Shown here piece after piece: positions 30,440 to 30,539 of a DNA stretch of 64,000 bases; within the stretch, counting starts at the first letter, position 1; each line of letters opens with the position of its first letter. The notes beneath the pieces were generated by a model. That model worked only from the letters and a program-made list of their open reading frames with translations, was not told the origin of the DNA and ran no database searches. The stretch comes from Escherichia coli (GTDB lineage Bacteria > Pseudomonadota > Gammaproteobacteria > Enterobacterales > Enterobacteriaceae), in assembly GCF_003334355.1 (NCBI RefSeq), contig NZ_QOWP01000002.1; one strand, written 5' to 3'. A program made the translations under genes and the position numbers.

Positions 30440-30460
30440 AGTTCTCCTCTCTTGCTGAAT

Positions 30461-30474
30461 TGAAACGATTCAGC
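30461..30474. promoter_or_regulatory. Cra (FruR) operator-like site upstream of fruB
   Basis: tgaaacgattcagc, reverse complement GCTGAATCGTTTCA, about 20 bp upstream of the fruB start. Confidence 0.6.
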
Positions 30475-30525
30475 CTCTATGAGAAAAAAAGCGCCAACCT
30501 GGCTTAGGGTTAAAGACAAGATCGC

Positions 30526-30539
30526 GCTGAAACGTTTCA
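30526..30539. promoter_or_regulatory. Cra (FruR) operator upstream of fruB
   Basis: gctgaaacgtttca matches the Cra consensus GCTGAAACGTTTCA. Confidence 0.7.

Follow-up and report, generated by a model that had tools for sequence, protein, structure and literature searches.

The regulator Cra (FruR), a member of the LacI/GalR family whose inducer or effector is fructose-1-phosphate (F1P) (PMC11157272, PMC7897506), recognizes an imperfect palindrome of 14-16 bp with the consensus gcTGAAwCGwTTCAgc (PMC5888115). At fruBKA, the founding target of Cra, two FruR sites are listed in RegulonDB (PMC3505978). The E. coli fru regulatory region contains O1 TGAAACGTTTCA and O2 TGAATCGTTTCA, which the regulator binds cooperatively (PMC4050194), and Table 1 of PMC11157272, citing Ramseier 1993, gives two operators, "fruBdistal" as GAGGCTGAATCGTTTCAA and "fruBproximal" as TTCTTGAAACGTTTCAGC. 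Binding of Cra to exactly the O1 and O2 sequences was followed by AFM and BLI (PMC11157272) and by EMSA on a two-operator E. coli fragment (PMC4050194); both papers cite Ramseier 1993.

Related arrangements are known from other systems. At lac, an operator (O1, at +11) lies over the start point of a CRP promoter, a second one (O2) lies downstream in transcribed DNA, and a LacI/GalR repressor is released by a sugar-derived inducer. The likeness has its limits: the auxiliary lac operator lies at 401 bp in coding sequence, whereas fru O2 lies at 65 bp in the leader, and Cra is not known to form LacI-type tetramers, PMC11157272 having seen dimers and offering loops bridged by FruK purely as speculation. 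The fruB genes of V. cholerae and P. putida also have a TGAAWC-GWTTCA-type Cra/FruR box at the promoter and share F1P as effector, and V. cholerae adds a CRP site at about -61 and a short transcript from the leader (IGR4, 107 nt). However, P. putida has a single operator, and V. cholerae has its functional FruR site between -35 and -10, where FruR reportedly acts as an activator; fruR adjoins fruB in both species, whereas the upstream neighbour in E. coli is setB.

Here, we describe the fruB-setB region in a 64,000-nucleotide (64-kb) stretch of E. coli DNA, hereafter the window. Its two Cra-like motifs are the long-known operators O1 and O2 of E. coli fruBKA, and as such they are already known and ordinary. 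What we add is that this pair, among the oldest repressor-operator models in E. coli, has between its operators a leader terminator that is conserved and can be seen in experimental data, together with a helix that may mask the Shine-Dalgarno sequence, an observation that should be of some value to specialists.

Results

The two motifs are the published fruBKA operators

The fruB-setB intergenic stretch sits on the E. coli chromosome: a match to window positions 30300-30900 is found in 5,418 of the 5,426 E. coli genomes that are complete, with 100% identity in several, and the RefSeq annotation of the fully identical genomes places fruB and setB at this locus. Moreover, positions 30437-30700 are identical to K-12 (offset 2,233,056). 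Open reading frames and RefSeq agree on fruB as the first gene of the operon, fruK and fruA as its remainder, and a divergent setB starting at 30807 (Table 1); the assignment to fruB made in an earlier note on this DNA is thus correct. The A of the fruB ATG is at 30439, the codon being the reverse complement of 30437-30439.

Table 1. Features of the fru locus, with their coordinates in the window
Feature	Coordinates	Strand	Details and basis
fruA	26663-28354	-	ORF and RefSeq (ATCC 8739, K-12)
fruK	28371-29309	-	ORF and RefSeq (ATCC 8739, K-12)
fruB	29309-30439	-	Fused PTS fructose IIA/HPr-like protein, 376 aa; ORF and RefSeq (ATCC 8739, K-12)
Possible Shine-Dalgarno-sequestering helix	30442-30488	-	U/C tract 30488-30481 (UUUUUCUC) with 30449-30442 (GAGGAGAA)
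ATTCAGC directly after O2	30454-30460	-	Second arm of GCTGAAT-N7-ATTCAGC
Cra operator O2 (promoter-distal, near the ATG)	30459-30474	-	16-bp box GCTGAATCGTTTCAAT (fruB-sense strand); published oligo "fruBdistal" spans 30460-30477 (exact, minus strand)
Leader terminator	30483-30527	-	Stem 30527-30519 with 30499-30491; U7 30490-30484; mapped 3' end 30483
Cra operator O1 (promoter-proximal)	30526-30541	+	16-bp box GCTGAAACGTTTCAAG; published oligo "fruBproximal" spans 30526-30543 (exact, minus strand)
Weak sigma-70-type promoter region	30544-30576	-	Sequence and conservation
-10 candidates	30552-30547 (TATTAT); 30549-30544 (TATGCT)	-	E. coli
-35 TTGCGT	30571-30566	-	Alternative TTTCCT 30576-30571
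CRP-like site TGTGC-AGCACA-TCAAA	30599-30614	-	Upstream of promoter; read from sequence

The same note had singled out two strings that fit the Cra consensus within 100 bp of the fruB start. Both fit it exactly where they had been placed, matching the degenerate core GCTGAAWCGWTTCA with no mismatch: gctgaaacgtttca at 30526-30539 (+), the box GCTGAAACGTTTCA, and tgaaacgattcagc at 30461-30474 (+), the reverse complement of which is GCTGAATCGTTTCA. Counted from the A of the ATG, the O2 core lies at 22-35 nt and the O1 core at 87-100 nt, the farthest base being exactly 100 nt away; both boxes are thus inside the regulatory region of fruBKA, and their centres are 65 bp apart in the window. The published oligonucleotides map exactly to the minus strand at these places (GAGGCTGAATCGTTTCAA at O2 and TTCTTGAAACGTTTCAGC at O1, spans in Table 1), and the synthetic consensus operator O^cra is identical to 30526-30539. 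As given in PMC11157272 and PMC4050194, the E. coli/Salmonella fruBKA operators of Ramseier et al. (1993, J Mol Biol 234:28) are base-for-base those of the window, in the same orientation, with the same spacing and in the same operon. Set against this reference we find no difference, the window being another E. coli strain with the reference sequence. The fit with known Cra repression of fruBKA that the note proposed is supported, and the pair does serve as a positive control, since operators and operon were both named correctly: a reading from sequence alone recognized a real operator pair and assigned it to fruBKA. We met no evidence contrary to this identification. Cra binding, cooperativity and the response to F1P at O1 and O2 are taken from the literature.

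A Cra matrix built without fruB ranks the operators highest

The earlier note had named a matrix score against background as the way to check the sites. We derived a Cra matrix de novo, by an unseeded Gibbs search of 15 other Cra-regulated K-12 promoters from which fruB was excluded (pfkA, tpiA, pykF, ppsA, aceB, icd, pck, fbp, epd, mtlA, glk, ptsH, adhE, gapA and edd). The sampler recovered the Cra box from these non-fru promoters, with a matrix information of 13.5 bits. Among the roughly 128,000 positions of the window, O2 ranks first with 21.3 bits and O1 second with 19.7 bits. The training sites themselves reach 20.7 bits at most, their median being 17.7, so that O2 scores above the best of them. 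In 100 shuffled windows the best score per window averages 14.2 and peaks at 19.5 bits, and only 8 of 200,832 K-12 background positions (about 265 kb, training sites included) reach at least 18 bits. A poor score, which the note had named as refuting its reading, is thus not what the matrix gives.

Both operators are kept in all species compared

For 80 species of Enterobacteriaceae, which represent about 30 genera, we collected the fruB locus and aligned the 331 nt that precede its start codon with those of the window (81 regions). In this alignment the O1 and O2 boxes stand out as islands of at least 95% identity. Both sites are found with at most one mismatch from the core in 81 of 81 regions, O1 always 84-89 nt and O2 always 19-25 nt before the ATG, with a centre spacing of 64-66 bp. 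The O1 core GAAACGTTTCAGCG shows no change at all among 70 leaders that were aligned, and the O2 variants GCTGAAACGATTCA, GCTGAATCGTTTCA and GCTGAATCGATTCA found in the 81 regions differ solely at W positions. Substitutions in the two boxes are thus confined almost entirely to positions at which the consensus is degenerate, a pattern that would be expected from selection on a protein-binding motif.

A weak promoter places the likely start point inside O1

The fruB promoter appears weak. A consensus promoter scan of 30380-30860 returned no strong promoter or strong -10/-35 pair, which fits dependence on CRP. The CTTG at 30572-30569 is invariant in the 81 species, most of which have TTGCGT followed, after 17 nt, by a weak -10, AAGACT; E. 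coli has TATTAT or TATGCT instead (Table 1). For E. coli, PMC7897506 gives an 18-bp spacer and places enteric FruR sites downstream of the fru transcription start site (TSS). In the CRP-like site, conservation of AA.TGTGC and TC.AA across the 81 species is 95% or higher, and in E. coli a CRP site is reported to lie about 60 nt upstream of the TSS of fruB (PMC8088597). From these elements we infer that transcription of fruB starts at about 30541-30535, inside O1, where either of the -10 candidates would place it. The description of both operators as "upstream of fruB" in the earlier note thus holds with respect to the ATG, to which they are 5', and needs refining with respect to the TSS: by the literature and by our reading they lie at and downstream of it, within the 5' leader.

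A further Cra-like element is seen in the promoter itself. The spacer between -35 and -10 carries a Cra left half-site, GCTGAAAC (fruB sense, 30558-30565), which repeats the O1 half-site in inverted orientation. Escherichia, Citrobacter, Salmonella and several further genera have it, whereas others, for example Klebsiella and Enterobacter, lack it.

An intrinsic terminator separates O1 from O2

The leader between the operators contains a terminator. The hairpin stem begins with the last two bases of O1, is closed by GCGC/GCGC and has a predicted free energy of -13.9 kcal/mol in E. coli (median -15.3 over the 81 species). The T tract persists as well, 71 of the 81 species having six or more T in eight, and the leader keeps a constant length of 55-57 nt. 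RNAalifold predicts the helix from the 70 aligned leaders, in which it covaries: pair 26-57 is CG in 26 sequences, UA in 22 and UG in 21, and pair 27-56 is CG in 38 and UA in 18. Over the whole three-helix structure we count 67 double-change cells, versus 13.7 in shuffles (none of 500 reaches 67) and 10-19 in slid controls.

This terminator is also visible in published Term-seq data (Adams et al. 2021, PMC7815308, supplements 1 and 3), which contain a 3' end at K-12 2,263,539(-), at a distance of 44 nt from the start codon of fruB and on its 5' side. All three conditions list it, with 218,310 and 431,335 reads on two condition sheets; its Rho score is 0.26 ("No"), its score as an intrinsic terminator is 9.6, and a regulatory element is not noted for it. 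In the window this position is 30483, the base directly after U7 and 9 nt before O2. What defines an intrinsic terminator is therefore found here: a G+C-rich stem-loop followed by a U tract and, in the published Term-seq, a Rho-independent 3' end at the end of that tract. Structure, covariation, conservation and the mapped 3' end together make an intrinsic terminator in the fruB leader a well-supported conclusion. A leader RNA, probably of about 55-60 nt, that ends at this terminator is abundant even without fructose.

The fruB terminator resembles other 5' UTR terminators mapped in that study in its hairpin and U tract, its abundant, Rho-independent 3' end and its high intrinsic score. It differs from them in having no apparent uORF, riboswitch or antiterminator (no alternative antiterminator pairing is evident in the leader folds) and in being flanked on both sides by operators of the operon's own repressor. 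It has attracted little attention: its 3' end is in the dataset of PMC7815308 without discussion there, fruB being absent from the main text, and our search of the open-access literature found no description of a fruB leader terminator or attenuator or of a leader sRNA. Nor did a simple promoter/terminator scan of 30380-30860 call it, because its long loop falls outside the scan rules, and an Rfam search of the same span with E-values up to 10 gave chance matches to eukaryotic families alone. Overall, the element looks like a conserved and little-noticed terminator or attenuator.

The leader can form further structures around O2

Downstream of the terminator, the leader can pair again. The U/C tract and GAGGAGAA, which contains the Shine-Dalgarno core GGAG (30447-30444), could form a helix that encloses the O2 hairpin described below. 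In this helix 92.7% of cells are paired, and two of its pairs swap UA for AU in 10 and 7 sequences, across genera. It is present in the minimum-free-energy fold of E. coli; the fold alone is not significant (z = -1.56). In read-through mRNA, such a helix may mask the ribosome-binding site. It is, with the leader terminator, the sole part of this region that might repay more work.

The span proposed for the operators in the earlier note started at 30454 and so included GCTGAAT at 30454-30460 (+), all 7 bp of which are repeated in inverted orientation at 30468-30474. On the fruB strand, its TTCAGC is invariant or nearly so in the 70 leaders, an invariance that leaves no covariation signal. The resulting GCTGAAT-N7-ATTCAGC could be an RNA hairpin, located 5 nt upstream of the Shine-Dalgarno purine run, or it could provide an extra Cra half-site. 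Beyond their 14-bp cores, O1 and O2 together with their flanks make up 22-nt inverted arms (30453-30474 and 30526-30547) that are 82% complementary. In RNA, these arms could pair across the terminator hairpin.

Discussion

Why are the two boxes there?

Cra, a LacI/GalR-family regulator, almost certainly represses fruBKA through O1 and O2. Identity to the published operators, rarity, matrix score and conservation of sequence and position are all observed, and they bear on two other readings of the boxes. One is that short, AT-rich palindromes arose by chance in an AT-rich region. The intergenic region does have a GC content of 42.5%, versus 51% for the window, and looser matches are not rare: GCTGAAWCGWTTCA with up to two mismatches is found five times, 2.18 being expected, and four of these five are O1 and O2, palindromes being counted on both strands. 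However, exact matches number two in the 64-kb window, which are O1 and O2, against an expectation of 0.00 (none in 100 dinucleotide-preserving shuffles); the same two sites hold the highest matrix scores; and all 81 regions keep both of them at fixed positions. Shuffles, matrix ranks and conservation thus refute a chance match, the probability of which we consider negligible. The other reading is that the boxes are conserved mainly for what they do in RNA, as part of the terminator stem, of the O2 hairpin and of the sequestration of the Shine-Dalgarno sequence, their resemblance to Cra sites being secondary. In fact, the last two bases of O1 do belong to the covarying stem, O2 and the following ATTCAGC can form the 7-bp hairpin, and the flanks of the operators extend them into the complementary 22-nt arms. 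Against this, nearly all of O1 is outside the covarying helix and yet invariant, and O2 varies at Cra-degenerate positions in ways that weaken pair 7 of the hairpin, which is paired in 16 of 69 sequences. Moreover, both boxes top a matrix learned from unrelated promoters, and Cra binding is published for exactly these sequences. A mainly RNA-level role for the boxes is therefore very improbable, and we reject a purely RNA-level conservation in view of the invariance of O1 outside the helix, the matrix ranks and the published binding.

How might two operators and a terminator repress fruBKA?

Repression by Cra through both operators, the reading that we prefer, would operate as follows. In cells growing without fructose, Cra dimers would occupy the two 16-bp imperfect palindromes. 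O1 (30541-30526) would start a few bases past the -10 and cover the likely start point of the weak, CRP-assisted promoter, and Cra bound there would hinder initiation or promoter escape, as at lac O1. O2 (30474-30459), 65 bp downstream in the transcribed leader and 19-25 nt before the start codon, would strengthen repression, either through its reported cooperativity with O1 or because Cra bound there gets in the way of polymerases that have already left the promoter; a separate role for O2 is something that we infer. When fructose is imported by FruAB, the resulting fructose-1-phosphate would bind Cra and lower its affinity for DNA, and both operators would be freed. In addition, the abundance of the leader 3' end in LB and glucose medium shows that the promoter is appreciably active under non-inducing conditions, so that occupancy of O1 alone may not account for the tightness of repression.

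In a rival reading, O2 would serve mainly as a roadblock at which bound Cra reinforces the leader terminator. Polymerase would stall on the U tract once the terminator hairpin has just formed, and termination would rise, until removal of Cra by F1P allows read-through. A protein bound to DNA brings RNA polymerase to a halt some 12-14 bp before it, and PurR at purB provides a precedent for such a roadblock in the LacI/GalR family. With this geometry, the active site of a polymerase stalled by Cra at O2 would be at about 30488-30490, which is on the U tract. Several observations point in the same direction: a conserved, covarying hairpin with a U tract lies between O1 and O2; the 3' end at 30483, with its intrinsic score of 9.6, has reads comparable to those of the ilvB and thiM leaders in fructose-free media; the leading edge of O2 is 9 nt past the termination point; and the T tract precedes O2 in the same register (-16 to -7) in 70 of 70 leaders. 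However, the fixed spacing could just as well come from constraints of cooperativity with O1 or of the helix that pairs with the Shine-Dalgarno sequence, and the terminator may be constitutive, merely setting the dynamic range. We therefore consider a roadblock at O2 possible but doubtful, and we put forward any link between Cra and the leader terminator purely as a hypothesis. Such a roadblock would refine the role of O2, which would still be a Cra operator. Somewhat less likely again is a wider scheme in which the two-operator picture itself is incomplete: Cra at O2 would hold polymerase on the U tract, F1P would control attenuation together with initiation, Shine-Dalgarno pairing would act in the read-through mRNA, and IGR4 of V. 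cholerae would perhaps be a counterpart.

If O2 did work as a roadblock, fructose-1-phosphate would act on attenuation as well as on initiation. The leader terminator and the possible Shine-Dalgarno-masking helix could explain why the second operator is so deep in the leader, and fruBKA may offer a simple example of attenuation assisted by a LacI/GalR-family repressor.

Other Cra-like and repeated sequences in the window

The fru-free matrix also picks out a third Cra-box-like sequence in the window, GCGGAATCGGTTCAAC at 45088-45103 (+). Its 17.5 bits come close to the median score of real Cra sites. The sequence falls within the coding region of yejG, some 80-95 nt past the start codon, and may be either a chance match or an unrecognized Cra target.

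Closer to fruB, and upstream of the CRP-like site, GCTGA pentamers cluster at 30634-30698. The cluster includes a perfect 10-bp inverted repeat, AATTGCTGAT-N13-ATCAGCAATT (30634-30643 and 30657-30666), which could form a structure in a setB-side or divergent transcript or be a protein-binding site. Across genera, GCTGAC/GCTGAA and TTCAGCAA are conserved, and the inner arms vary, appearing by eye to remain complementary.
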